Below, one piece after another: positions 21,765-57,300 of a stretch of 64,000 nucleotides of DNA (position 1 is its first letter; every line of letters begins with the position of its first letter). Source of the DNA: a virus; IMG/VR virus record IMGVR_UViG_3300020416_000001, positions 1 through 64,000 of that record; one strand, given 5' to 3'. The position numbers and the translations under genes were made by a program. The notes beneath the pieces were generated by a model, which saw only the letters and a program-made list of their open reading frames with translations, did no database searches and was not told the origin of the DNA.

Positions 21765-21825
21765 TAGGACAATTCAAGAACTGACCACCAGACACCCCCT
21801 CTGGTGGTTTTTTATGTGCTATAAT
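21765..21825 (+). promoter_or_regulatory. palindrome + -10 promoter unit 1 (degenerate)
   Basis: taggacaattcaagaactgaccac, 31 nt, then TATAAT at 21820 preceded by TGc (extended -10). Confidence 0.6.
21784..21813 (+). terminator. intrinsic terminator
   Basis: accaccaga/tctggtggt 9-bp stem followed by a T run. Confidence 0.75.
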
Positions 21826-21848
21826 TTGGGTATCAAACAGGGGAGTGA

Positions 21849-23120
21849 ATGACAGTCAATCTACGCAAGCACCAACAGAGAGCAGTTGACGCGATGAAGC
21901 GTCACACAAAAGGTCAGATCATCGTGCCTACAGGCGGTGGTAAAACAATGTGTATGATTTATGACTGTCTCCGCCAGTTGAACAGCAACAGCAACAGCAC
22001 AATCATTGTTGTAGCACCTCGTATCCTACTCGCTAATCAGTTGAGTGAGGAGTTTCTACAGTTTATGAAGGCAGATTGGGTATATCCTTATCACGTCCAC
22101 TCAGGCGAGACTCATCACGAGTCAGGTACAAAACCAGATAAACTTGCTCAGTTCATCAAGGACAACAAAGCAAAGAATGCAGTTGCTACTCACATCATCT
22201 TTACAACATATCACTCATTGAGAAGAGTTGTTGAAGCAGTTACACGTCATCAACTTGAGATCGATGTAGCATATTTTGATGAAGCACACAACAGCGTAAC
22301 ACGCAATTTCTTTGATTCAACCGAGGACATCAGTTATATTTCAAAGAGAACATACTTTTTTACTGCTACCCCTCGTATCCACAACAGAGGTAGGCACAAC
22401 AGAGGTATGAACAACACTAAGGTGTATGGTCAGATCATTCAACAAGTACCCGCACCAGAATTGATTGAATCAGGTTCTATCATCCCACCTACTATTGTGC
22501 CATTTGAGCAAGATATTGAGCGTGTAAAGAAAATGAGTTGGGATACTGACGCTCAAACAGTCCTAGATGTACTTGACACACTTGACAGTAAGAATGCTCA
22601 GAAGGTGCTATGTGCCGTCCCTAGCAGTAAGATTCTAGGTAATATGCTAGGTCAGACCAACTTGCTTGATGAGTTGAAGAAACGCGGTTACGATGTTCTA
22701 CACGTTACCAGTAAATTCGGTGCATATGTCAATGACAAGAAGGTAAATCGTGAGAAGTTTTTCGAGACAATGGATTCATTCGGACGTGACGATGACAGAA
22801 AATTCATCATCTTTCACTATTCTATTTTGAGTGAGGGCATCAACGTCCACGGATTGACCCATACTATTCTATTGAGACAACTTCAAACCGTCGAAATGGC
22901 ACAGACTATTGGTAGAGTCATCCGCCTACATAAAGAGGACGCAAAGCGTATTCGCTCAGGCGAAATCGTAGCAGGTAAACTTGATATGTATCGTAAACCA
23001 ACTGGTTACGTTACAGTTCCTACCTATACGAACTATGGTAAGCACATCGCTAAGCGTTTACAAAACGTTGTAGATGCGATTTTCGTACACGGAATTCATC
23101 CCGAGTCACTAGTTGCATAA
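21849..23120 (+). CDS. superfamily 2 DEAH helicase (ResIII-like)
   Basis: LRxHQ Q-motif, PTGGGKT, DEAH, TAT, SEGINV, QTIGRVIR. Confidence 0.9.
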   Translation: MTVNLRKHQQRAVDAMKRHTKGQIIVPTGGGKTMCMIYDCLRQLNSNSNSTIIVVAPRILLANQLSEEFLQFMKADWVYPYHVHSGETHHESGTKPDKLAQFIKDNKAKNAVATHIIFTTYHSLRRVVEAVTRHQLEIDVAYFDEAHNSVTRNFFDSTEDISYISKRTYFFTATPRIHNRGRHNRGMNNTKVYGQIIQQVPAPELIESGSIIPPTIVPFEQDIERVKKMSWDTDAQTVLDVLDTLDSKNAQKVLCAVPSSKILGNMLGQTNLLDELKKRGYDVLHVTSKFGAYVNDKKVNREKFFETMDSFGRDDDRKFIIFHYSILSEGINVHGLTHTILLRQLQTVEMAQTIGRVIRLHKEDAKRIRSGEIVAGKLDMYRKPTGYVTVPTYTNYGKHIAKRLQNVVDAIFVHGIHPESLVA

Positions 23121-23155
23121 ATAACTTTAACAAAGTACAGTTACAGAGATTGACA

Positions 23156-23584
23156 ATGGCAACAAGTCAAGTTAATGGATGGGCAGATCAGTTGCTCACT
23201 AAATTATCTGAGAAGGCAAAGGCATACCGCCTTGCAACTATTGATAAAAGACTAGCAGAAGGTGTTGGCACAACTGCTGAGATCGCTAGGACATTGCACT
23301 CAGGTGTGAACGTATTGGTCACTAAACGTGAGAAAATAGTAGCGGATGATGCTTCAGTAACGTGGACATTCGCAAAGGCGGATGATGGCGAAGACATCAA
23401 AATTAGTGCTACCGCACCCTCGGATAGGGGCGGACATACAAAAGATTTACTCTGGATTGAGGGTTCTACTGGTAAATGTAAGAAACTCAAAGGAGATCTA
23501 TACAACGTAGATGCTAACAGTCTCGACGATACTTATCGTGAGACATTCTTTGGCAAGGTAACACATTTGGGAACATTCTGGTAA
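23156..23584 (+). CDS. hypothetical protein, probably late-expressed
   Basis: 142-144 aa; CATAAATA at 23116-23123 upstream. Confidence 0.7.
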   Translation: MATSQVNGWADQLLTKLSEKAKAYRLATIDKRLAEGVGTTAEIARTLHSGVNVLVTKREKIVADDASVTWTFAKADDGEDIKISATAPSDRGGHTKDLLWIEGSTGKCKKLKGDLYNVDANSLDDTYRETFFGKVTHLGTFW

Positions 23585-23588
23585 ACAC

Positions 23589-23647
23589 TAGGACAATTAA
23601 ATAACTGTACCACTAGACCCCCACAGGGGTCTTTTTTATGGCATTAT
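23589..23647 (+). promoter_or_regulatory. palindrome + -10 promoter unit 2
   Basis: taggacaattaaataactgtacca, 29 nt, then CATTAT preceded by TGg. Confidence 0.6.
23615..23637 (+). terminator. intrinsic terminator
   Basis: agacccc-caca-ggggtct followed by a T run. Confidence 0.8.
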
Positions 23648-23653
23648 ATAAGA

Positions 23654-23817
23654 GTAAGGGAAACAACTTAGACGGTTGCTATACCCGAAACTCTCATTTG
23701 TGGGGTTATCCTACTAAGATATGAGTCAGTAGGGGTACAGGTGTAAGCGATTCCTATAGCGTAAATTTGGACTCTTGAGTGAAACTCATTACAGTAGTCC
23801 CGCGTTGTTCCCCTTAC
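23654..23817 (+). ncRNA. candidate structured non-coding RNA (~165 nt)
   Basis: Own promoter unit, no + strand ORF, 13/14-bp terminal stem (23654-23667 with 23804-23817) and several internal stems. Confidence 0.6.
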
Positions 23818-23826
23818 AACACCCAC

Positions 23827-23885
23827 TATGACAGTTGATAAACTGCACACCTATCTCACACAGGAAGCAGAATCAACGTTATAGT
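23827..23885 (+). promoter_or_regulatory. palindrome + -10 promoter unit 3
   Basis: tatgacagttgataaactgcacac, 29 nt, TATAGT. Confidence 0.7.
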
Positions 23886-23890
23886 ATAAA

Positions 23891-23945
23891 TGTTGAGAGC
23901 GTTGCTCACATTCACAATCGCTGAGGGATACCCTCGCTCTCAACA
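23891..23945 (+). other. structured 5' leader
   Basis: tgttgagagcg/cgctctcaaca 11-bp stem enclosing a gaggg-ata-ccctc hairpin. Confidence 0.6.
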
Positions 23946-23970
23946 CATAATTCACACACAACTTAATACG

Positions 23971-24132
23971 ATGACCAGAGTACAAATCACATTACTAGTT
24001 GAAGTTGACACCGAGGACGAAGTTAATTGCCCTGACGGTGACCCTATCACACAAAACGTAGTAGTCAACGCAGTTGACAATGATTTCTTTCTTGACCCTG
24101 TAACTGTATTAGATGCGAGGATAGTAGATTGA
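23971..24132 (+). CDS. small acidic hypothetical protein
   Basis: ATG 23971 (MTRVQITLLVEV...) is preferred because the 23890 start lies inside the leader stem. Confidence 0.65.
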   Translation: MTRVQITLLVEVDTEDEVNCPDGDPITQNVVVNAVDNDFFLDPVTVLDARIVD

Positions 24133-24302
24133 TAAACCTAAAACTCACAAGAGAACAGTTCGAAGAGATTTATGATGCAGTCAGAGATCTACCTGACATT
24201 TATAAATCAGAACTAAAAGAATCAGGCGATGAACCCGACGCTGCACACATCGACCTATTTGATGCAGTCAACATAATGAAGGAGATTTATGAATCATACT
24301 AA
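24129..24302 (+). CDS. small acidic hypothetical protein (57 aa, not in track)
   Basis: TTG start overlapping the previous stop, GAGG upstream; INLKLTREQFEEIYDAV... Confidence 0.6.
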   Translation: MINLKLTREQFEEIYDAVRDLPDIYKSELKESGDEPDAAHIDLFDAVNIMKEIYESY

Positions 24303-24612
24303 CAACAAAAAAGAATTTACAATCGCTCTATCTCGTAGAGAACTAGGACTATTACATTACTATACTAGAGGACTAGTTGCAAGAATTGACAGCGACGTAA
24401 CAGACTGGGGTTCTAGTTGTACTGGTCACGATACTATAGAGCACGATGACTATGGTAAGGACGCGATTCTAGGATTATTCAAACAAGTTAAACCACTTGT
24501 TGAATCTAACTATGGCACACAGTTCGAAGACTGGCAACAAATGACTCTCAAGGTCAATCCACAAACTGTCACACCCGAACCACTAGACCTTGCACCATCC
24601 TCTATAATATAA
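24289..24612 (+). CDS. hypothetical protein
   Basis: 107 aa with AAGGAG SD. Confidence 0.7.
   Translation: MNHTNNKKEFTIALSRRELGLLHYYTRGLVARIDSDVTDWGSSCTGHDTIEHDDYGKDAILGLFKQVKPLVESNYGTQFEDWQQMTLKVNPQTVTPEPLDLAPSSII
24550..24608 (+). promoter_or_regulatory. palindrome + -10 promoter unit 4
   Basis: aaggtcaatccacaaactgtcaca, 29 nt, TATAAT. Confidence 0.7.
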
Positions 24613-24631
24613 GAGTAAAGCAAACAACTCA

Positions 24632-24820
24632 ATGATTATTATGACACCTGATCTTGATTTGCTACTTTCATATGAAAATGGCACTATAACTGAAGATGAT
24701 TTCTTTTTCCTCTTTCAACAAATATATGACACTAAGGCATATCAATGGTTGCAGGGGCATTACGGTAGAACTGTTCAACTATTACTAGAGGAGGGATTGA
24801 TTTATGAGTCGTCCAAATAG
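24632..24820 (+). CDS. hypothetical protein (WLQGHYGRT family)
   Basis: 62 aa directly after the promoter leader. Confidence 0.75.
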   Translation: MIIMTPDLDLLLSYENGTITEDDFFFLFQQIYDTKAYQWLQGHYGRTVQLLLEEGLIYESSK

Positions 24821-25010
24821 AGATTTAACTTTTGATGAACTGGACGCACTTTGGGAATTGACTCAAGTCGCATCTCATCAACAATTAAATCAACTTGAGA
24901 AGACTTTTACAGTCAGGTTTCGAGTTATTCGCAAGAAACTAGACAGTATGAGCACAACTCAAAGAAACACATACTTGAAAAAAGTAAACATCCCTGACCC
25001 ACAATGGTAA
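24804..25010 (+). CDS. hypothetical protein
   Basis: 68 aa with GGAGG SD. Confidence 0.65.
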   Translation: MSRPNRDLTFDELDALWELTQVASHQQLNQLEKTFTVRFRVIRKKLDSMSTTQRNTYLKKVNIPDPQW

Positions 25011-25291
25011 TTAGAAAAATGAATCAAAACTCAGATCTTGAAGGTGCTAACCTTATCCGCACAATGTCACAAAGTGAACTAGACACATTCAAAGAGGTAT
25101 TTGTAGAGCGTTACATTGAAAATTGTACTGTTGAGCAATTAGAGCAAATTGCACGAGATTCAATGATTGACTACGCTAACAATGTATCAGAGAATGATTT
25201 GATCGATGAATTGATCGGATACGGTGGCGAGGAATTTGTAGATGAGTGCCTAGAGGAGTCTAGGGAACTCGTTGCACTTCGCAACAAATAA
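25004..25291 (+). CDS. hypothetical acidic protein
   Basis: 95 aa. Confidence 0.7.
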   Translation: MVIRKMNQNSDLEGANLIRTMSQSELDTFKEVFVERYIENCTVEQLEQIARDSMIDYANNVSENDLIDELIGYGGEEFVDECLEESRELVALRNK

Positions 25292-25350
25292 TATGACAGT
25301 TTGACAAGTGTCACACACATACACTATTATGGAGCATACACCCCTATAAT
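25292..25350 (+). promoter_or_regulatory. palindrome + -10 promoter unit 5
   Basis: tatgacagtttgacaagtgtcaca, 29 nt, TATAAT. Confidence 0.8.
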
Positions 25351-25375
25351 AATTACATAAGCAACAGACAAACAA

Positions 25376-25879
25376 ATGCAAGTGACCACACCCGAAGCAA
25401 GATACCAACAACTATTTGAAGCAATGTATGAACTTTGCGATCAACAGGGATGGGGAGACCCATTCAGTTACGCGAGGTCTAGAGAGATTCATCTAGCAGG
25501 TATTTTAGGTCACTCAGTTGCTGACGATTATAGCGGTGCGGATGCATTTGACGCTGATGGAAACCCAGTAGAGTATAAATCTACTATAGGTAAGAAACTG
25601 ACTGCTACATACAACGGCATTTCAGTTCAAGATACTTGGGACAATCAAGTCAAGTATCTTAAAGAGGAAAAAATCGGCAAGTACAAAGATCATTTTTTCG
25701 CACGCTATTCAAATGGTCAAGTTGTTGAGGTCTGGCAAATGTCAGGCGATGACGTCTTGAAATTGCTTTTACCTAGTCTAAAAAAGCAATTCTATTCTAC
25801 AAAAGTTAGAAAAGATCCCAGACTAGGTTATACTATCCCATTCAAACAGATTCAAAACTATGGACAACGAATTAAGTAG
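25376..25879 (+). CDS. putative PD-(D/E)xK restriction-endonuclease-like protein
   Basis: SRE...GADAFDADGNPVEYKS matches the E...D-x(n)-ExK nuclease core. Confidence 0.6.
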   Translation: MQVTTPEARYQQLFEAMYELCDQQGWGDPFSYARSREIHLAGILGHSVADDYSGADAFDADGNPVEYKSTIGKKLTATYNGISVQDTWDNQVKYLKEEKIGKYKDHFFARYSNGQVVEVWQMSGDDVLKLLLPSLKKQFYSTKVRKDPRLGYTIPFKQIQNYGQRIK

Positions 25880-26090
25880 AATCGAAGAGTATGACTCAGA
25901 GATTAATCCTAAGATGCAGGAAGCAATCGACGTGCTAGGAGAGCACTATATGAAGCAAATTGCAGGATTAATTGAGAATAATCGATTTGATGATGCTGAC
26001 GCAATTTATAAAGAATTTGTTGTAAATGGATGTGACCCCGAAGATGGTAACTATGAGTGGATATTTTTGGATGATATGTTGGACAGTTGA
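25860..26090 (+). CDS. hypothetical acidic protein
   Basis: 76 aa. Confidence 0.7.
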   Translation: MDNELSRIEEYDSEINPKMQEAIDVLGEHYMKQIAGLIENNRFDDADAIYKEFVVNGCDPEDGNYEWIFLDDMLDS

Positions 26091-26137
26091 ATAACTGGCA
26101 CACAACTACACTATTCACATACAACACACACTATAAT
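26079..26137 (+). promoter_or_regulatory. palindrome + -10 promoter unit 6
   Basis: ttggacagttgaataactggcaca, 29 nt, TATAAT. Confidence 0.8.
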
Positions 26138-26160
26138 AATAATATACAAAACAAAACACA

Positions 26161-26409
26161 ATGAACTCAAAGGCAATTTACACAACACCAGTAAACAGAA
26201 TCAAACAGAAAGTTTTATTCAACGATGGTTTAAGCAGATTGACCCATATATGTGCTAACTGGGCGGAGTATGTTCAAGAGTTAGCAGAGTGGGGTATCAC
26301 AACAAACAACACTCTAGCAGGTGTGAACTTAAATAATCTATCCGAGTGGGATATTCAGTATCTTGACATCTTTATCAAGAATCAGAACGGTTACGAGGAG
26401 GAGGTTTAA
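26161..26409 (+). CDS. hypothetical protein
   Basis: 82 aa after an A/C-rich leader. Confidence 0.7.
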   Translation: MNSKAIYTTPVNRIKQKVLFNDGLSRLTHICANWAEYVQELAEWGITTNNTLAGVNLNNLSEWDIQYLDIFIKNQNGYEEEV

Positions 26410-26411
26410 TA

Positions 26412-26633
26412 ATGTCACAACAGCACATTTTCGCAGACCCTACAGAACTTGAAGCAAGATATGGTTTCAGTTACGAAGCATTAGAGCAATTTGAAGCAGT
26501 ATTTCGCTATCTTGATGAGGAAGCAGACCCTAGTCTAGTTGATGAGATTAAAACAAGTGATGTAGGTTTAGAGCAATTAGTTAACTTTGCAACTGAGTTA
26601 AGAGTATTCGATGGAGTCAATTTAGATGCTTAA
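26412..26633 (+). CDS. hypothetical acidic protein
   Basis: 73 aa with GGAGG SD. Confidence 0.7.
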   Translation: MSQQHIFADPTELEARYGFSYEALEQFEAVFRYLDEEADPSLVDEIKTSDVGLEQLVNFATELRVFDGVNLDA

Positions 26634-26790
26634 TATTCCTATTACTTTCGATCAGTCCTATCAAATGATAAAATTATGGGACACTCTCAGAGATATGGAT
26701 TTCGAACTGACTGACGAGCAAACAGCAGTATTTGAACTCATTCAAACAGGCGATTATCTAGTTAAGGAGCATCCAAAGAATGAAAACTGA
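26626..26790 (+). CDS. small hypothetical protein (54 aa, not in track)
   Basis: MLNIPITFDQSYQMIKLWD...; GGAG SD. Confidence 0.6.
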   Translation: MLNIPITFDQSYQMIKLWDTLRDMDFELTDEQTAVFELIQTGDYLVKEHPKNEN

Positions 26791-26890
26791 TTTACTTCTT
26801 AAAATCTACATTGCTGCTAAAAAGGAAGCGAAGAAGAAAAAAGCAATCAAACCAATTAGAACACATTACAACGCACATTCATTTGGTTGA
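26780..26890 (+). CDS. small basic protein (36 aa, not in track)
   Basis: MKTDLLLKIYIAAKKEAKKKKAIKPIRTHYNAHSFG*; AAGGAG SD; stop abuts the palindrome. Confidence 0.6.
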   Translation: MKTDLLLKIYIAAKKEAKKKKAIKPIRTHYNAHSFG

Positions 26891-26949
26891 TGTGACAGTC
26901 ACATAAGTGGCACACAGTTTTACCATATGCCACACAGAGTGACTATAAT
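26891..26949 (+). promoter_or_regulatory. palindrome + -10 promoter unit 7
   Basis: tgtgacagtcacataagtggcaca, 29 nt, TATAAT. Confidence 0.8.
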
Positions 26950-26973
26950 GTTAATATACAAAAGAAAACACAA

Positions 26974-27165
26974 ATGGCACAATCACACAGAACACCCACA
27001 AAAGGACTAAACATCGATTTGACTATTGGTCAGTATCAACACCTTTATGATCTCGTTTGCGATGCATATGACCGAGGTTATGACCAGAGACCTAGAATCG
27101 ATACTCAAACTTTTGATAATATGTTTGATGCTATTTGTAACGCAAAGTCAACTTACCTTAAATAA
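26974..27165 (+). CDS. hypothetical protein
   Basis: 63 aa. Confidence 0.7.
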   Translation: MAQSHRTPTKGLNIDLTIGQYQHLYDLVCDAYDRGYDQRPRIDTQTFDNMFDAICNAKSTYLK

Positions 27166-27171
27166 TAAATT

Positions 27172-27333
27172 ATGAGATATTCAATCCACGTCCCAACCGC
27201 ACCATTTGAAAATACAAGTTTTGTAAACTTGGATGACTGTTGGAGTCTTTGCTATGATCTAGCACAAGAATATGGATATGCTGAGGTTAGATATGGAAAT
27301 TGTCTAATGGGTTCTTATTGTGACAGAGATTAA
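27172..27333 (+). CDS. small hypothetical protein (53 aa, not in track)
   Basis: MRYSIHVPTAPFENTSF..LDDCW.LCYDLAQEYGYAEVRYG... Confidence 0.65.
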   Translation: MRYSIHVPTAPFENTSFVNLDDCWSLCYDLAQEYGYAEVRYGNCLMGSYCDRD

Positions 27334-27377
27334 ACTGTCACACAATTATCCTATTTAATCAACATAACCTTTATAAT
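27319..27377 (+). promoter_or_regulatory. palindrome + -10 promoter unit 8
   Basis: tgtgacag-agattaaa-ctgtcaca (perfect 8-bp arms), 29 nt, TATAAT. Confidence 0.8.
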
Positions 27378-27400
27378 ATTACTATACACAGGAAAACAAA

Positions 27401-27604
27401 ATGAATTACGATCACGAATTTTATGTAACTCAAAAGTGCACAACATACAAATACTATACTGTTGTTGCTGCAACTATGGAGGAAGCAAAAGAGAAAATCG
27501 AGGATGATGATATGGATTTACAGGACTGGGAAGAATTTGACTATAAAACAGTTGAAATCGAAGAGCAAGAGATACCAGTTCAACAACTGGCACTCGCCTT
27601 ATAG
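27401..27604 (+). CDS. hypothetical acidic protein
   Basis: 67 aa, 'V.A.T.EEA.E' pattern. Confidence 0.7.
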   Translation: MNYDHEFYVTQKCTTYKYYTVVAATMEEAKEKIEDDDMDLQDWEEFDYKTVEIEEQEIPVQQLALAL

Positions 27605-27630
27605 ACTTCACACCCATTACCCTCTATAAT
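27571..27630 (+). promoter_or_regulatory. palindrome + -10 promoter unit 9
   Basis: gataccagttcaacaactggcact, 30 nt, TATAAT. Confidence 0.75.
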
Positions 27631-27653
27631 ATTACTATACACAGGAAAACAAA

Positions 27654-27917
27654 ATGCACAACTTTCAAGAATTCTCAGACTACATCGAAATGTTCTATTG
27701 CCCTGAGCACCCTGACTGTTTATATCCTATCGAAGGATTAACTAAGGGCGAGATCGCAATCGCAATACTTAACTATCTTGACCTATGTGCAGATAATGAG
27801 AATATTAACTGGGGCGATGGCGATTCACTTGATCGCGAGCGTGTAAGGGATATTATTAAGGACAATAGAGCAAAGGACTATAGATCAGTTTTGAGTATCA
27901 TAGGAGTTCAAAAGTGA
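27654..27917 (+). CDS. hypothetical protein (GDSLDRERVRD family)
   Basis: 87 aa. Confidence 0.75.
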   Translation: MHNFQEFSDYIEMFYCPEHPDCLYPIEGLTKGEIAIAILNYLDLCADNENINWGDGDSLDRERVRDIIKDNRAKDYRSVLSIIGVQK

Positions 27918-28126
27918 AAAATTACAACACATACGAGACATTTTCAGAAATAAGTGTGGGCGATACAGTTGCCTACACTAATGAGAATGGCAAGAGAATC
28001 ATAGGGCAAGTTATTATAAGATGGGGCAAATATTGTGACCCCCAACTTGAAATATGCAACGATGACTCAATTAACTACTACCCAGTAAAGGATTACACTA
28101 AATGCAAAGTTTTGGAAAGGTTCTAG
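27914..28126 (+). CDS. hypothetical protein (SH3/KOW-like)
   Basis: 70 aa, GTG start with AGGAG SD; 'VGD.V......G.V' pattern. Confidence 0.65.
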   Translation: MKNYNTYETFSEISVGDTVAYTNENGKRIIGQVIIRWGKYCDPQLEICNDDSINYYPVKDYTKCKVLERF

Positions 28127-28184
28127 TGCCAGTTTTATTAGTGGCACACACTATAATGATTTTACAGCAATCATCCTCTATAAT
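28125..28184 (+). promoter_or_regulatory. palindrome + -10 promoter unit 10
   Basis: agtgccagttttattagtggcaca, 30 nt, TATAAT. Confidence 0.8.
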
Positions 28185-28207
28185 ATTAGTATAAGACAAA
28201 AAACACT

Positions 28208-28585
28208 ATGACTACACAAACACCAGTTAAACTAGACACATATCAAAAATTACTAGTTGACAGAATTGACACATACGGAACAGGGGACTGGAAAAATAAT
28301 GTCTCAATACATCATAAGCACGATTCTAGTATGTTCTCAAATATTTTGATCGGTCGCGAAGTTGTTGCTAAGGTAGTTTATGAAGTGCCATCCGAGGATA
28401 TATCCGCCGATGATTATAGAGCGATTCACATCGATAAGACCAAAAAAGCGAAAGTTTCTTATATCGCATTTGGCAATGATATTTGGGCATATCGTAGTCC
28501 AACACAAGTTTCAAGATATAGAAACATTTTGAAAAAACTCGGTTATCTCATCATTCAAGTAGATAACAAAGTTATTCAATACTAG
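28208..28585 (+). CDS. hypothetical protein
   Basis: 125 aa. Confidence 0.7.
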   Translation: MTTQTPVKLDTYQKLLVDRIDTYGTGDWKNNVSIHHKHDSSMFSNILIGREVVAKVVYEVPSEDISADDYRAIHIDKTKKAKVSYIAFGNDIWAYRSPTQVSRYRNILKKLGYLIIQVDNKVIQY

Positions 28586-28596
28586 TCAAGCGATGG

Positions 28597-28655
28597 TGTG
28601 ACAGTTTAACTAGTGTCACATCATCACACCATACTCACACATTACCCACTATAAT
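28597..28655 (+). promoter_or_regulatory. palindrome + -10 promoter unit 11
   Basis: tgtgaca-gtttaactag-tgtcaca, 29 nt, TATAAT. Confidence 0.8.
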
Positions 28656-28682
28656 AAGAATATACAAACGAGGTTAAAACAA

Positions 28683-28850
28683 ATGTCACAAGAAAAAACT
28701 TTCACTTACACTTTCACTCAAGCACAAGATGACGTGCTAGTTCAAATGATAAGATATTTCAATGAGTTGGGAGTTGGTGGCGATATGAACGAAGATGATT
28801 TTGATTCACTTGTTGATGTCGTTTGCAATCATCCTAACTCAGTTGCTTAA
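28683..28850 (+). CDS. small acidic protein (55 aa, not in track)
   Basis: MSQEKTFTYTFTQAQDDVL...FDSLVDVVCNHPNSVA*; GAGG SD. Confidence 0.7.
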   Translation: MSQEKTFTYTFTQAQDDVLVQMIRYFNELGVGGDMNEDDFDSLVDVVCNHPNSVA

Positions 28851-28854
28851 GACT

Positions 28855-29028
28855 ATGAACATTTTTAAGTACACAATCCACACCCCTAAGTTATTCAACA
28901 GCGAAGTATTCACGGATGACTTAGACAGAGCGAAGCAATTAGCAACAGAATTTGGTCAAGACTACGATTTTAGTTTTGTTGTTGATAATGCTACAAATAA
29001 AACTATTTTCGAGGGAGTTCGATGGTAA
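28855..29028 (+). CDS. small hypothetical protein
   Basis: ATG 28855 (MNIFKYTIHTP...) is preferred over 28795. Confidence 0.6.
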   Translation: MNIFKYTIHTPKLFNSEVFTDDLDRAKQLATEFGQDYDFSFVVDNATNKTIFEGVRW

Positions 29029-29099
29029 CACTTATCTCAATACTTTTAATAGTATTCATTCTTTTAATTATTGTCAACTATTACAATCCACACAACTAA
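29022..29099 (+). CDS. 25-aa single-pass membrane peptide (not in track)
   Basis: MVTLISILLIVFILLIIVNYYNPHN*; GGGAG SD. Confidence 0.55.
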   Translation: MVTLISILLIVFILLIIVNYYNPHN

Positions 29100-29100
29100 A

Positions 29101-29250
29101 ATGATTTTCATTACTACATCCGTCCCTACTTACGATTTTCCTAGTAGTCCTATTCTTTGGTTAGGGTTCTTAGGTATCCTAGTAGCAGTATTTACAGTTT
29201 ACACAGTAAATAAAGCATATTTCAATAGTCCACTTAATCAAGATAAATGA
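29101..29250 (+). CDS. 49-aa single-pass membrane protein (not in track)
   Basis: ...PSSPILWLGFLGILVAVFTVYTVNKAYFNSP... Confidence 0.6.
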   Translation: MIFITTSVPTYDFPSSPILWLGFLGILVAVFTVYTVNKAYFNSPLNQDK

Positions 29251-29308
29251 GACAGTTAAGACTCATCAATTTTAGATTAACACAATGACCTAGGACACCC
29301 CCCAAATA

Positions 29309-29367
29309 TGTGCCAATTTTATTACTGTCACACTCTAACAACTAAAGAGTACAATTTGCTCTATAAT
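29309..29367 (+). promoter_or_regulatory. palindrome + -10 promoter unit 12
   Basis: tgtgccaattttattactgtcaca, 29 nt, TATAAT. Confidence 0.8.
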
Positions 29368-29389
29368 AAGTATAACAACACAGATAACG

Positions 29390-29518
29390 ATGACAAACGA
29401 ACAACGCTACAAAAATTTCCTAAAGTGGGAAGCAATGATACAGAGACGCGAAGCACGTCTTGCCAACAAAGCAGAAAAATTTCTTAATGCACATTTTCAA
29501 ATCGTGGAGGTCAAGTAA
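29390..29518 (+). CDS. small basic protein (42 aa, not in track)
   Basis: MTNEQRYKNFLKWEAMIQRREARLANK...; first ATG after unit 12. Confidence 0.6.
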   Translation: MTNEQRYKNFLKWEAMIQRREARLANKAEKFLNAHFQIVEVK

Positions 29519-29677
29519 ATGAGTTGCCTACAAAATGAAATCTTAATGGAAAATCTTTTTGAAGAAGAGTATGCAGCAATGCAAGAGAGTGGTCTAGCGG
29601 ATACACTCACACCCGAAGCATTACAGGAGCATTGCGAGTTTATTGCAAAAGAGCGATTTTGGGACTTAGCAGAGTGA
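29519..29677 (+). CDS. small acidic protein (52 aa, not in track)
   Basis: MSCLQNEILMENLFEEE...AKERFWDLAE*; GGAGG SD; its TGA is part of the next palindrome. Confidence 0.7.
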   Translation: MSCLQNEILMENLFEEEYAAMQESGLADTLTPEALQEHCEFIAKERFWDLAE

Positions 29678-29731
29678 CAGTTATGAAAGTGGCACAACTT
29701 GCCACTATTCTCACTCTATCCCCTCTATAAT
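29673..29731 (+). promoter_or_regulatory. palindrome + -10 promoter unit 13
   Basis: agtgacagttatgaaagtggcaca, 29 nt, TATAAT. Confidence 0.8.
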
Positions 29732-29761
29732 AATTACATAAGCAACACAGGAGTAACACCG

Positions 29762-29956
29762 ATGGCATACAGAGCAACTAAGCAAGAGGTTCTAACACAG
29801 TTCAGATATAACTGGAAAGTCGCTACAATGCAGAATCCTAGACTTAAGGGCGATGTAGTTGCCAAACGTGAAGACTGGAATAATTTTGTTGATGCATTGA
29901 ATAAAGATGGATATGTATCAGACAATCAAGCATATAACTGGACAAATCCATTCTAA
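29762..29956 (+). CDS. hypothetical protein (REDWNNFVDAL.KDG family)
   Basis: ATG 29762 with AGGAG SD. Confidence 0.75.
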   Translation: MAYRATKQEVLTQFRYNWKVATMQNPRLKGDVVAKREDWNNFVDALNKDGYVSDNQAYNWTNPF

Positions 29957-29961
29957 GAACT

Positions 29962-30249
29962 ATGAACGACATTTTCACTAACACACAACTTTTATTAAAC
30001 AATCTCACAATCCGCCCACAAATGACTAAAGATCAATTTATTGAAGAAGTTTATGAAATAGCATTTGGCGATAATGCTATTAATCGCGATTTCGCATTTG
30101 ATGAAGTAATAGAGAAACTTCGCGAGTTTTCAGACAATGCTCTCATATTTGAAGAGAGCGGGTTTACAGAGAGCGAACTAGAGGAACTAAGCAACAAAAG
30201 ATTTTCTAATCTTGAATCAACAGCACCCGATTATGGAGTAGGCAAATGA
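29962..30249 (+). CDS. hypothetical acidic protein
   Basis: 95 aa, 'FIEEVYEIAFGDNAINR' motif. Confidence 0.7.
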   Translation: MNDIFTNTQLLLNNLTIRPQMTKDQFIEEVYEIAFGDNAINRDFAFDEVIEKLREFSDNALIFEESGFTESELEELSNKRFSNLESTAPDYGVGK

Positions 30250-30371
30250 GAGTGGTTTTTACTATCATCGTTTTTTTACTAGGATTAAATCTTATTGTTG
30301 ATCTTAGCAATTCTAACCTGATCGAACTACTAAACGAGAGACAGCAGCAGATTGAAAACGTCACTAAGTGA
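30246..30371 (+). CDS. 41-aa membrane-anchored peptide (not in track)
   Basis: MRVVFTIIVFLLGLNLIVDL...; GGAG SD; TGA lies inside the next palindrome. Confidence 0.6.
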   Translation: MRVVFTIIVFLLGLNLIVDLSNSNLIELLNERQQQIENVTK

Positions 30372-30425
30372 CAGTTGACAAAGTGGCACACACAGGCGAG
30401 CATCCGCCTCGGTATCCACTATAAT
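30367..30425 (+). promoter_or_regulatory. palindrome + -10 promoter unit 14
   Basis: agtgacagttgacaaagtggcaca, 29 nt, TATAAT. Confidence 0.8.
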
Positions 30426-54300: not shown

Positions 54301-57300
54301 CGTTGATGGACAGGTTGCTCAGACAATATATGCAATGAATGCAGCGAGAGATCTCGCTAACAAGTGTATTAATATGGTGGACATCACTACTGAGTACACA
54401 ACTCTGTCTCAGTGGAAGGATCTCACTATTACACCTGAATATGAAGTTGTAAGTAATAGTCACGGTGACGCTAGAACCTTGTTGCTTGCTAACAAGTGGT
54501 TTATTGCGTATGAGTCACTTCACTATGCTAAGACTCTAAACCCAGGTTATAACGTATCTGGTGGAGATGAGCATTGCCTCTCTGACATCGTGGATGTTGT
54601 TGAAGCACTTGCATACAACGTTGCACACGGTGGTAACGATTTCATTTGGGAAGCAACAGATAGAATCCTTCACTACGGTGTAACATCTGGTGATAGAGAC
54701 ACTATTGTCAACTCCTTTACAAAGGCAAAGGCAATGTCTCTCGATATTATGAGAAATATTGCTGTTACCAAGGCAGGATCACACGATTGGAATCAGGTAA
54801 CCATTTCTATCACTGCTGACCCTGCAAGTCCAACTTGTCAGGCAGTTGCTGCTTCTATCACAACATTGATGGATATTCTCATCAATGCTCTTGGTACAAC
54901 TGCATCCCCAGGCACTAGAGAAGCATTCCAAGCAGCAGTTACATCAACTGCTCCTCAGGCAGACTACTCACAAGGTAGAACTACGATTCCTAATGAAAAT
55001 GCTTGTGTTGCTCAGACATCTGCTGTTGCAAACTTCTTCAAAATCATTACTGATACTCTATCAGATCCTACTGGAGCAGATCCTGCTACCTATCAGTGGT
55101 CTATCAGCAATGTTCCTAGAATTGCACCTGCATACACCTTTGAAGCGGGTGAGACAATCCGTTCTATCAAGCATTCTTATAAGGACAAATCATCTGGTGG
55201 ATTCTTCAACTTCGGACAAGTTCTTAAGGGTGTCTCCTCTGGTGCTGTTGCAGAGATCATTGGAACCAATGCAGGTAGCAAATGGGTCTATACAAAGGGT
55301 GTTACTGGAGCATTCAACCCTGCTGAGTACATTACAAACTCAACAATCACATATAATAACGTTACAACTGATAAGTTGAACCCTGGAACTGGCACTGGAT
55401 CACTTGAATTTAGTGGTACAAGTTCTAGACTTAGACACGATTCCAATGCAGCATTTGCCTTTGGAACTGGTGATTACACAGTTGAACTCTGGATCTATCC
55501 TACAACTGTATCTGGTACACAACGTATTATAGATTTCAGAACTGCTTCAAGTAGCAATGCAGGTAGCATCTTCTTACAAGGAACATCAATCAAGTTTGGT
55601 ATTGGCGTAAATGACCATATCACTGGATCTGCTGCAGTTCCTACTGCTAATCAGTGGTATCACGTTGCTATCTCTAGAGCATCTAACGTAACTAAGATGT
55701 TTGTCAACGGTCAACCCGTTGGTTCTGATTACACTGACGCTTCTGATTATCCTAACTCTCCAATCACTGTCGGTGCATCTTGGGCAAATGGTGAGACTTT
55801 CACAGGTAATATGGACAACCTTATTATCAGAAAAGGAACCGCCAGCTACTCTAGTGGGTTTACTCCCCCTACTGTTTACGATTTCAAAGCACTTGACATC
55901 TCATTCGGTTTCAATGGTGAATCACCGTTCCCAATGGAACTCTCTGCAGTCTACGCAACATATCAACAGACTATCATCTCATCTGCTAACGCTGACGGTG
56001 TAGAACTCTGGCGTGAAGAGATTATGACAGAGGAGATTGATGTTTCTCGTGATGATTATAGAGATTGTGCTGATATTATTGATAAGAACCGTTTCTGGAT
56101 CGCAGAAGAAGCAGTTGGACGTATGAAGGAGAAATATCCTGCATTTGTCATCCCAGGTGACGGTGGTGGATCTACTCAAGGTACTGACAAGTGTGTTCGT
56201 GACACTAACTCCTTTATTATCCCTGCAATCATTAATGACCTTAAGTTAGGTGGTAACTTCCACACTATCGTTGCAGGTCGTGGATACTTAGAAGGATCTG
56301 GTGCTCTCAAGCACGTTAATGGTGAACTTCTACAGTCAATCTATACTTGGCGTGAAGTTGGTAAGATCTGTATTGACGTTATCACTAAAGATGAATCAGA
56401 TCTAACTGGTGAGTACACAAATAGAATTAGAGTTCCTAATTATTTCTCATCTCCTGCATCATCAGCAATTCAAACATTCATTTCTGACTTGATTGACAAT
56501 ATGTTGGAAGTTATGTCTCCAACAGGTCACAGATACAGAGATGGTGCTGATCTTCTTTACTTCAACCGTGGCGCGATTGCTGATGAAGCAGTCTCTATGA
56601 TGGAGCAAGAATGGAACGTTCTAATCAACTTTGTCCAACAAGATAAGATTGACATTCCTAGCAGAGAGAAATGTGTAAGAGATATTAGAGACCATATCGT
56701 TCCTGCTGTTGCAGGTGACTTGATCACTGGTGGTAACTCAAATATCCAAGGTATGATTGATTCATATCTCGATTCACAAAGCAATATTAACTATATCGAG
56801 ACTGAGTTGCTTGCAATGCTTGATGCTCTTGAGCACGTCAAGTTCCTTTCAAACAAAGCACTTCAGAACCTCTTAGTTGGTAGAAACGAAAACATTGCTA
56901 ACATTGCAGGTACAACACCTCAAACTATCGATGATTTCTATCAACTTCAGTATAGTGACCTAACAGCATACAGAAAAGAGTATGATGCTGCTGTTAATTA
57001 CGATCTAACTGGCGGTGTTATTACTGAGAGCACCTTCTATCCACCTGATCCTAAGATCTTCCAAGGTACACATAGAGCACTTGATTCTGCAAATATCATT
57101 GAAAGAAATGCTCGTACTATTGCAGGTGAGGCAGTTGACATTGTAACTAAGACATCAGCATTCAAGCACTACAACTTCAGAGTTCCTGGTGGTAAAGTTC
57201 ATTGTGAAGACGACATCGTTGATTTCATCAACTCTGTTGCACACGACTTGAGATTCTCATCTAACAGTGAGGTATATGATGCTGCAGCACTATATCTGAA

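Follow-up and report, generated by a model that had tools for sequence, protein, structure and literature searches.

T4-like cyanophages are among the most abundant viruses of the sea and help to control Prochlorococcus and Synechococcus. To our knowledge, few RNA elements have been reported from these phages (manA, wcaG, PhotoRC-II, glnA and CfrI), and we know of no orphan RNA among them with a proven function. Phage T4 itself makes two small stable RNAs, C and D (species 1 and 2), which are located in the tRNA cluster, are made together with the tRNAs and have an obscure role. manA and wcaG are complex covarying RNAs that are nearly restricted to marine cyanomyoviruses and ocean metagenomes; they are located right after a promoter and before varied genes, and the function of neither is known (PMC2864571). 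In the plastic regions of T4-type phages, repeated units of early promoter and stem-loop (PeSL) flank variable cargo, and close relatives differ by whole cassettes (PMC2839356; PMC4122927).

Location and fold of the RNA

The DNA analysed here, a stretch of 64 kb called the window, represents the early region of a T4-like cyanomyovirus and stems from an IMG/VR record of 171,756 bp that is 94% complete and has only distant cultured relatives. The cargo of one of its promoter units, unit 2, is a structured RNA on the + strand (positions 23654-23817, 164 nt from closing helix to closing helix). The RNA lies inside an ORF-free gap (23585-23970) between a 144-aa ORF that ends at 23584 and a small ORF whose ATG is at 23971 (Table 1). 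An earlier, sequence-only reading of the window had proposed that this unit carries a structured RNA and not a protein, insulated by an upstream terminator and bounded downstream by the next palindrome. The covariation described below and the lack of a credible + strand ORF in the gap agree with this proposal, and both boundaries were located (terminator stem 23615-23632 followed by a T run; palindrome 23827-50). Between the RNA and the next promoter unit of the window no terminator was found.

The region from 21765 to 30400 of the window contains fourteen units, all on the + strand, in which a 24-bp palindrome is followed by a -10 box about 29 nt later. Only the palindromes at 21765 and 23589 overlap a true terminator. 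Since no -35 element is evident in the fourteen units, the palindrome may be a factor-binding site. The small ORF at 23971 is preceded by a 53-nt leader hairpin (23892-23944), which is almost invariant in the window and in four related contigs, with differing flanks, and may be a separate conserved cis element.

Table 1. Features of promoter unit 2 and of its RNA in the window
Feature	Position	Strand	Remarks
Imperfect palindrome heading unit 2	23589..23612	+	repeated at the heads of 14 window units; kept in four related contigs
Intrinsic terminator of the upstream 144-aa ORF	23615..23638	+	7-bp GC-rich stem (23615-23632), then T run; kept in relatives
-10-like box	23642..23652	+	few nt 5' of the closing helix of the RNA
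P1, 5' strand	23654..23667	+	pairs with 23804-23817
P1b, 5' strand	23673..23674	+	pairs with 23801-23802; third pair is A-C in the window copy
P2, 5' strand	23677..23683	+	pairs with 23755-23761
P3, 5' strand, CCC then GAA	23684..23689	+	CCC (23684-86) pairs with GGG (23733-35); GAA opposite AGUA (23728-31), loop-E-like
Variable P3 insert, one hairpin module	23690..23727	+	module recurs in other members
Invariant 3' bulge, P3 to P2	23736..23754	+	includes the 17-mer 23738-23754
Invariant junction J2/4 into P4	23761..23770	+	nearly invariant in 99/99 sequences
P4 around hairpin P5	23769..23800	+	P4 23769-73/23796-800; P5 23776-79/23785-88; covariation in both
Invariant UGAAA loop of P5	23780..23784	+	letters of the window copy
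P1, 3' strand	23804..23817	+	13/14 pairs with the 5' strand, one A-C
Next promoter unit	23827..23890	+	palindrome 23827-50, -10 region 23880-90; missing together with the RNA in four related contigs

The window copy can form every helix of the family, with one A-C mismatch in P1 and one in P1b. Its folding energy is -45.4 kcal/mol with the family helices enforced, versus -50.1 kcal/mol unconstrained. The fold of the single + strand is only modestly better than that of shuffled sequences (z -2.4; z -4.0 for the - strand), and the reality of the RNA therefore rests on covariation. The family model R1 detects the window copy with 56.3 bits (E 4e-14), and neither the window nor the rest of the 171,756-bp genome has another match. 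The copy has the R1 order of helices (P1 with P1b, three-way junction, P2, P3, P4, P5) together with the exact 17-mer, the J2/4 junction and the UGAAA loop, which makes it a member of the R1 family. In a search for an antisense target that allowed up to three mismatches, the 17-mer had no further match in the window, on the + or the - strand.

All stems listed in the sequence-only reading exist. Its closing stem is P1, and gctata/tatagc, ggact/agtcc and tgagt..actca are the family helices P2, P4 and P5. The stem ctcat/atgag forms the base of the insert hairpin and is carried by other members as well (L027); gtgggg/tcctac can also be formed. Two competing pairings had in addition been thought to allow a switch or a pseudoknot. 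Of these, taccc/gggta is real and is helix P3 itself; comparative support was found neither for cctact/agtagg nor for a switch or pseudoknot.

Covariation, known families and distribution

The structure was derived from two alignments, A2 with 27 short members and a second one in which 99 distinct members were anchored to the left and right of the variable region, and both give the same fold. According to this comparison, the family folds into a closing helix P1, a three-way junction and five further helices (P1b and P2 to P5). P1 usually has 8-12 bp (up to 14 bp in the window copy) and occurs as 51 distinct duplexes, while the 3-bp helix P1b alternates between two compensating versions. The 7-bp helix P2 shows three to four pair types at five consecutive positions and is 98-99% paired in the 99 sequences. 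P3 is backed by two independent compensatory changes, P4 has 5-6 bp, and hairpin P5 is capped by an invariant UGAAA loop. Between P3 and P2, a 20-nt bulge in the 3' strand is invariant, as is an 8-nt junction before P4. In total the RNA is 113 to 339 nt long (median 162 nt).

In A2, 98.6% of the cells are paired compared to 86.7% in shuffled alignments, and none of 500 shuffles was as good; both sides have changed in 16 of the 27 pairs. Slid controls of the same alignment were only 37-55% paired. The sequence-only reading had named homologues with compensatory changes as a check, and homologues were indeed found in cyanophages and viromes, with all six helices being kept via compensatory changes among the 99 distinct copies. 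The top pairs in a mutual-information scan were the helical pairs of the family, including those of P2; the scan returned only these known helices and no tertiary covariation. RNAalifold predicts a hairpin inside the invariant bulge, the bases of which never vary, so the hairpin stands as a prediction only. About 45 unpaired junction and loop bases are almost invariant in the 99 distinct copies. Two scans with non-overlapping patterns each recovered the motif of the other unchanged, and a variant 17-mer was found in one member only (L155, one base different). That the helices drift freely and the junctions do not points to a specific tertiary core.

In the family helices G-U pairs outnumber A-C pairs by 139 to 8, showing that the + strand is the functional RNA strand. 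The distance across P3 falls in all three residues modulo 3; the length changes are thus not multiples of three, and the element is therefore not coding. The variable positions form contiguous runs in helices and do not occur at every third base.

Variation in length is found in P3, whose inserts of about 10 to 230 nt are made of recurring hairpin modules. P3 is a simple hairpin in 29 of the 99 members. In 49, among them the window copy, a GAA/AGUA internal loop (loop-E-like) leads into at least one hairpin, and 17 have a larger conserved extension. The single 22-nt module of the window (23699-23720) is the same in L022, L027, L041 and L073. At least four further recurring hairpin modules were observed downstream of the RNA in many contigs (in L001 at 1595-1690, in L017, L018, L022, L083, L123 and others). 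Their stems covary and their loops are conserved; two of the modules are also seen within P3 inserts, and none is found in Rfam. In L007, L051, L063 and L077, tRNA-like T-arm sequences are located 200-330 nt downstream of the RNA; in these long, structured stretches neither ARAGORN nor Rfam called a tRNA.

At the gathering score, Rfam 15 gave no match in the window or in 20 related loci, ribozyme and riboswitch classes included, and at E <= 10 it gave no relevant match for the window region or the P-SSM2 copy. ARAGORN detected no tRNA or tmRNA in the window and none overlapping the element in 241 loci. The model for manA (RF01745, gathering cut-off 55.2 bits) matched neither the window copy nor that of P-SSM2 at E <= 10. 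It does find genuine manA elsewhere in the source genome, in P-SSM2 and in another contig (G002) at 128-182 bits (source genome 132834-133027, corresponding to L294 1501-1694, 127.6 bits; P-SSM2 142837-143034), and no motif is common to manA and the sequences studied here. The manA of the source genome is preceded by the same layout of terminator, T run and -10 box as the studied RNA. wcaG (RF01761, gathering cut-off 42 bits) has no match on the element; its sole match in the source genome is sub-threshold (14.8 bits) and lies outside the element. Judged by these searches, the RNA family matches no catalogued family, in line with the sequence-only reading, which could not assign the window copy to any RNA family. 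A full-text literature search found no description of the RNA; the family may be included in a catalogue of over 10,000 candidate RNAs from viruses (PMC10690425).

In blastn searches against phage records, the centre of the element matched an unannotated 366-nt gap of P-SSM2 and P-SSM5 as well as marine single-cell virus records. The P-SSM2 copy is located at 56,699-56,816. The exact 17-mer was found in at least 120 IMG/VR viral contigs, and a longer pattern in at least 119 ocean metagenome contigs (Tara, JGI). Among 185,579 genomes of prokaryote species, the 17-mer is present in 26 contigs, only one of which is confirmed by R1, a phage-looking marine contig of 1.9 kb that was binned as Poseidoniales. 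The other matches in this set were not confirmed by R1 and are due to chance. With viral and marine matches and a single confirmed contig among the prokaryote genomes, the family appears to be viral and marine, and it appears to be confined to marine T4-like cyanophages. The source genome and the complete P-SSM2 genome each have one copy. The L022 contig G004 contains two copies about 900 nt apart (1220-1337 and 2129-2266), one being the short form and the other carrying a P3 insert.

Genomic context and possible function

In 66 of 85 copies (78%) P1 is preceded by a TAnnnT box whose end lies 3-12 nt away, compared to 27% at random positions; for a stricter -10 box the values are 55% and 6%. 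A U-rich tract follows P1 in only 21 of the 85 copies (25%). In 66 of 156 copies an ORF start is located within 60 nt, with no -10 box between (about 42%, a crude count). The neighbours are diverse, with 47 upstream and 35 downstream protein clusters, and no constant neighbouring protein was found, since no neighbour family is present in more than 70 of 240 loci. Flanking genes encode a helicase, a DNA methyltransferase, DUF6267, DUF7717, a 2OG-Fe(II) oxygenase and many small ORFs. About a quarter of the contigs end at or near the element, as expected for a conserved segment with mosaic flanks.

Four related contigs, whose upstream ORF is 79-86% identical to that of the window, have no RNA at the same locus. 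On one side of the locus they retain palindrome, terminator and -10 box, on the other the small ORF with its 53-nt leader hairpin, and a hairpin of about 52 nt replaces the 164-nt RNA and the second promoter unit of the window. The RNA is therefore part of an exchangeable, dispensable, promoter-headed cassette. As in PeSL, promoter units lie before (23589-23652) and after (23827-23890) the cargo, which is present or absent between relatives. A 'non-coding operon' composed of a promoter, other structured modules, the RNA and tRNA-Thr(UGU) was observed in L237 (60-455) and L181. In these two metagenome contigs the tRNA-Thr starts 5 nt after P1, so that RNase P would release the RNA.

Our best guess, which we hold tentatively, is that the family encodes a discrete early RNA that acts in trans, its invariant core binding a specific partner. 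The gene for the folded RNA travels as a promoter-headed cassette of the PeSL type and would be transcribed early by the host RNA polymerase from its own promoter. The long closing helix would then protect both ends of a discrete, stable RNA. A protein or complex of the host or the phage may bind specifically to its invariant junction core, with P3 pointing away from the core and being able to carry extra hairpin modules. We rank this reading first because of the long closing helix, the independence from neighbours, the promoter that follows and the tRNA context. The own promoter, the single copy, the lack of a fixed gene partner, a stable P1 of 8-14 bp and the near-invariant core all speak for a trans-acting RNA. 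Against it stand the lack of a terminator after the RNA in the window, the low frequency of U-rich tracts (21/85) and the leader position of 66 of 156 copies, which is also that of manA.

A close second, and a realistic possibility, is a cis-acting leader, the core of which would be a small-ligand sensor (riboswitch) or a put-like antiterminator acting on the polymerase; such a leader would set the reach of early transcripts into whatever genes follow. It is placed here because of the 5' position, the parallel to manA and the many copies in leader position. As judged from the -10 box, the RNA is at or near the 5' end of the transcript in 78% of the copies, an ORF start follows within 60 nt in about 42% by the crude count given above, and a U-rich tract is present after P1 in 25%. 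manA, a riboswitch candidate (PMC2864571), shows the same arrangement of terminator, -10 box and RNA in the source genome and precedes varied genes. The complexity of the RNA and its invariant junctions are aptamer-like as well. A conserved expression platform was, however, not found, the 3' flanks falling into many unrelated classes, and the heterogeneous downstream genes share no common theme. Further arguments against a leader are the separate promoter that intervenes in the window between the RNA and the following ORF, the tRNA or additional RNA modules behind some copies, and the length and stability of P1.

It is unlikely that the RNA is catalytic, by self-cleavage or otherwise, and processes the early transcript, for instance by releasing itself from flanking modules. 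Ribozymes typically have this many invariant unpaired bases, and copies of the P-SSM2 type have other RNA modules on both sides on one transcript, so that some processing is needed. Nevertheless, no Rfam ribozyme class matches, no conserved candidate cleavage site was found, and new ribozyme classes are rare.

Taken more broadly, it is a realistic possibility, though less likely than not, that the core represents a new class of ligand-sensing or catalytic RNA, be it a riboswitch, a ribozyme or a polymerase-modifying antiterminator. If it did, abundant ocean cyanophages would use such an RNA at the start of infection, and P3 would be the place where swappable hairpin modules dock.

Slightly below a catalytic RNA that processes the transcript we place a selfish or recombination-promoting DNA element, a PeSL-like hotspot of shuffling whose transcript would have no function of its own. 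It could explain the mosaic flanks, the quarter of contigs ending at or near the element, the presence or absence between close relatives and the recurrence of hairpin modules inside and outside P3. The compensatory changes and the strand-specific G-U pairs show, however, that selection acts on the folded + strand transcript; moreover, there is one copy per genome, and the invariant bases are located in unpaired junctions and not at the ends. Finally, a chance fold is hardly conceivable, as is a protein gene encoded by the - strand (60-aa ORF 23668-23850); the covariation data have already refuted this reading. Folding of the window copy is slightly better on the - strand, and 48 of 240 loci have a - strand ORF of 50 aa or longer that overlaps the element. 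However, the ORF is missing from most copies, the indels break the - strand frame, variation tracks helices rather than codons, and on the - strand the 139 G-U pairs would become A-C mismatches, which excludes the coding ORF that the sequence-only reading had considered.

Comparison with known systems

In complexity and conservation the RNA is on a par with a riboswitch or a ribozyme, and it is present in hundreds of ocean contigs. Because the cultured phage P-SSM2 has a copy, the RNA is open to bench experiments. The modules of P3 hint at a larger repertoire of modular phage RNAs that is not yet catalogued.

Like ROOL and GOLLD (Rfam), it is a phage-borne, complex and strongly covarying orphan RNA. 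In contrast to these it is much smaller (113-339 nt), matches neither model, and multimers are not evident. By description it resembles the T4 RNAs C and D in that two family members have a tRNA-Thr within 5 nt, whereas most copies, including that of the window, are not located beside a tRNA. With manA and wcaG it shares the complexity, the support by covariation, the occurrence in cyanomyoviruses and the ocean, and the position directly behind a promoter. It differs from both in having no similarity in sequence or model, a different fold and a hypervariable P3, and it is often followed by a separate promoter, a tRNA or other RNA modules. The likeness to PeSL lies in the 14 promoter units of the window and in an RNA cargo that is present or absent between relatives, but the cyanophage units are built from a 24-bp palindrome and a -10 box, and a clear -35 is missing. 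PeSL cargo published so far consists of ORFs, whereas that of the cyanophage unit is an RNA gene. Gene shuffling among T4-type phages by promoter-headed cassettes can thus extend to RNA genes.
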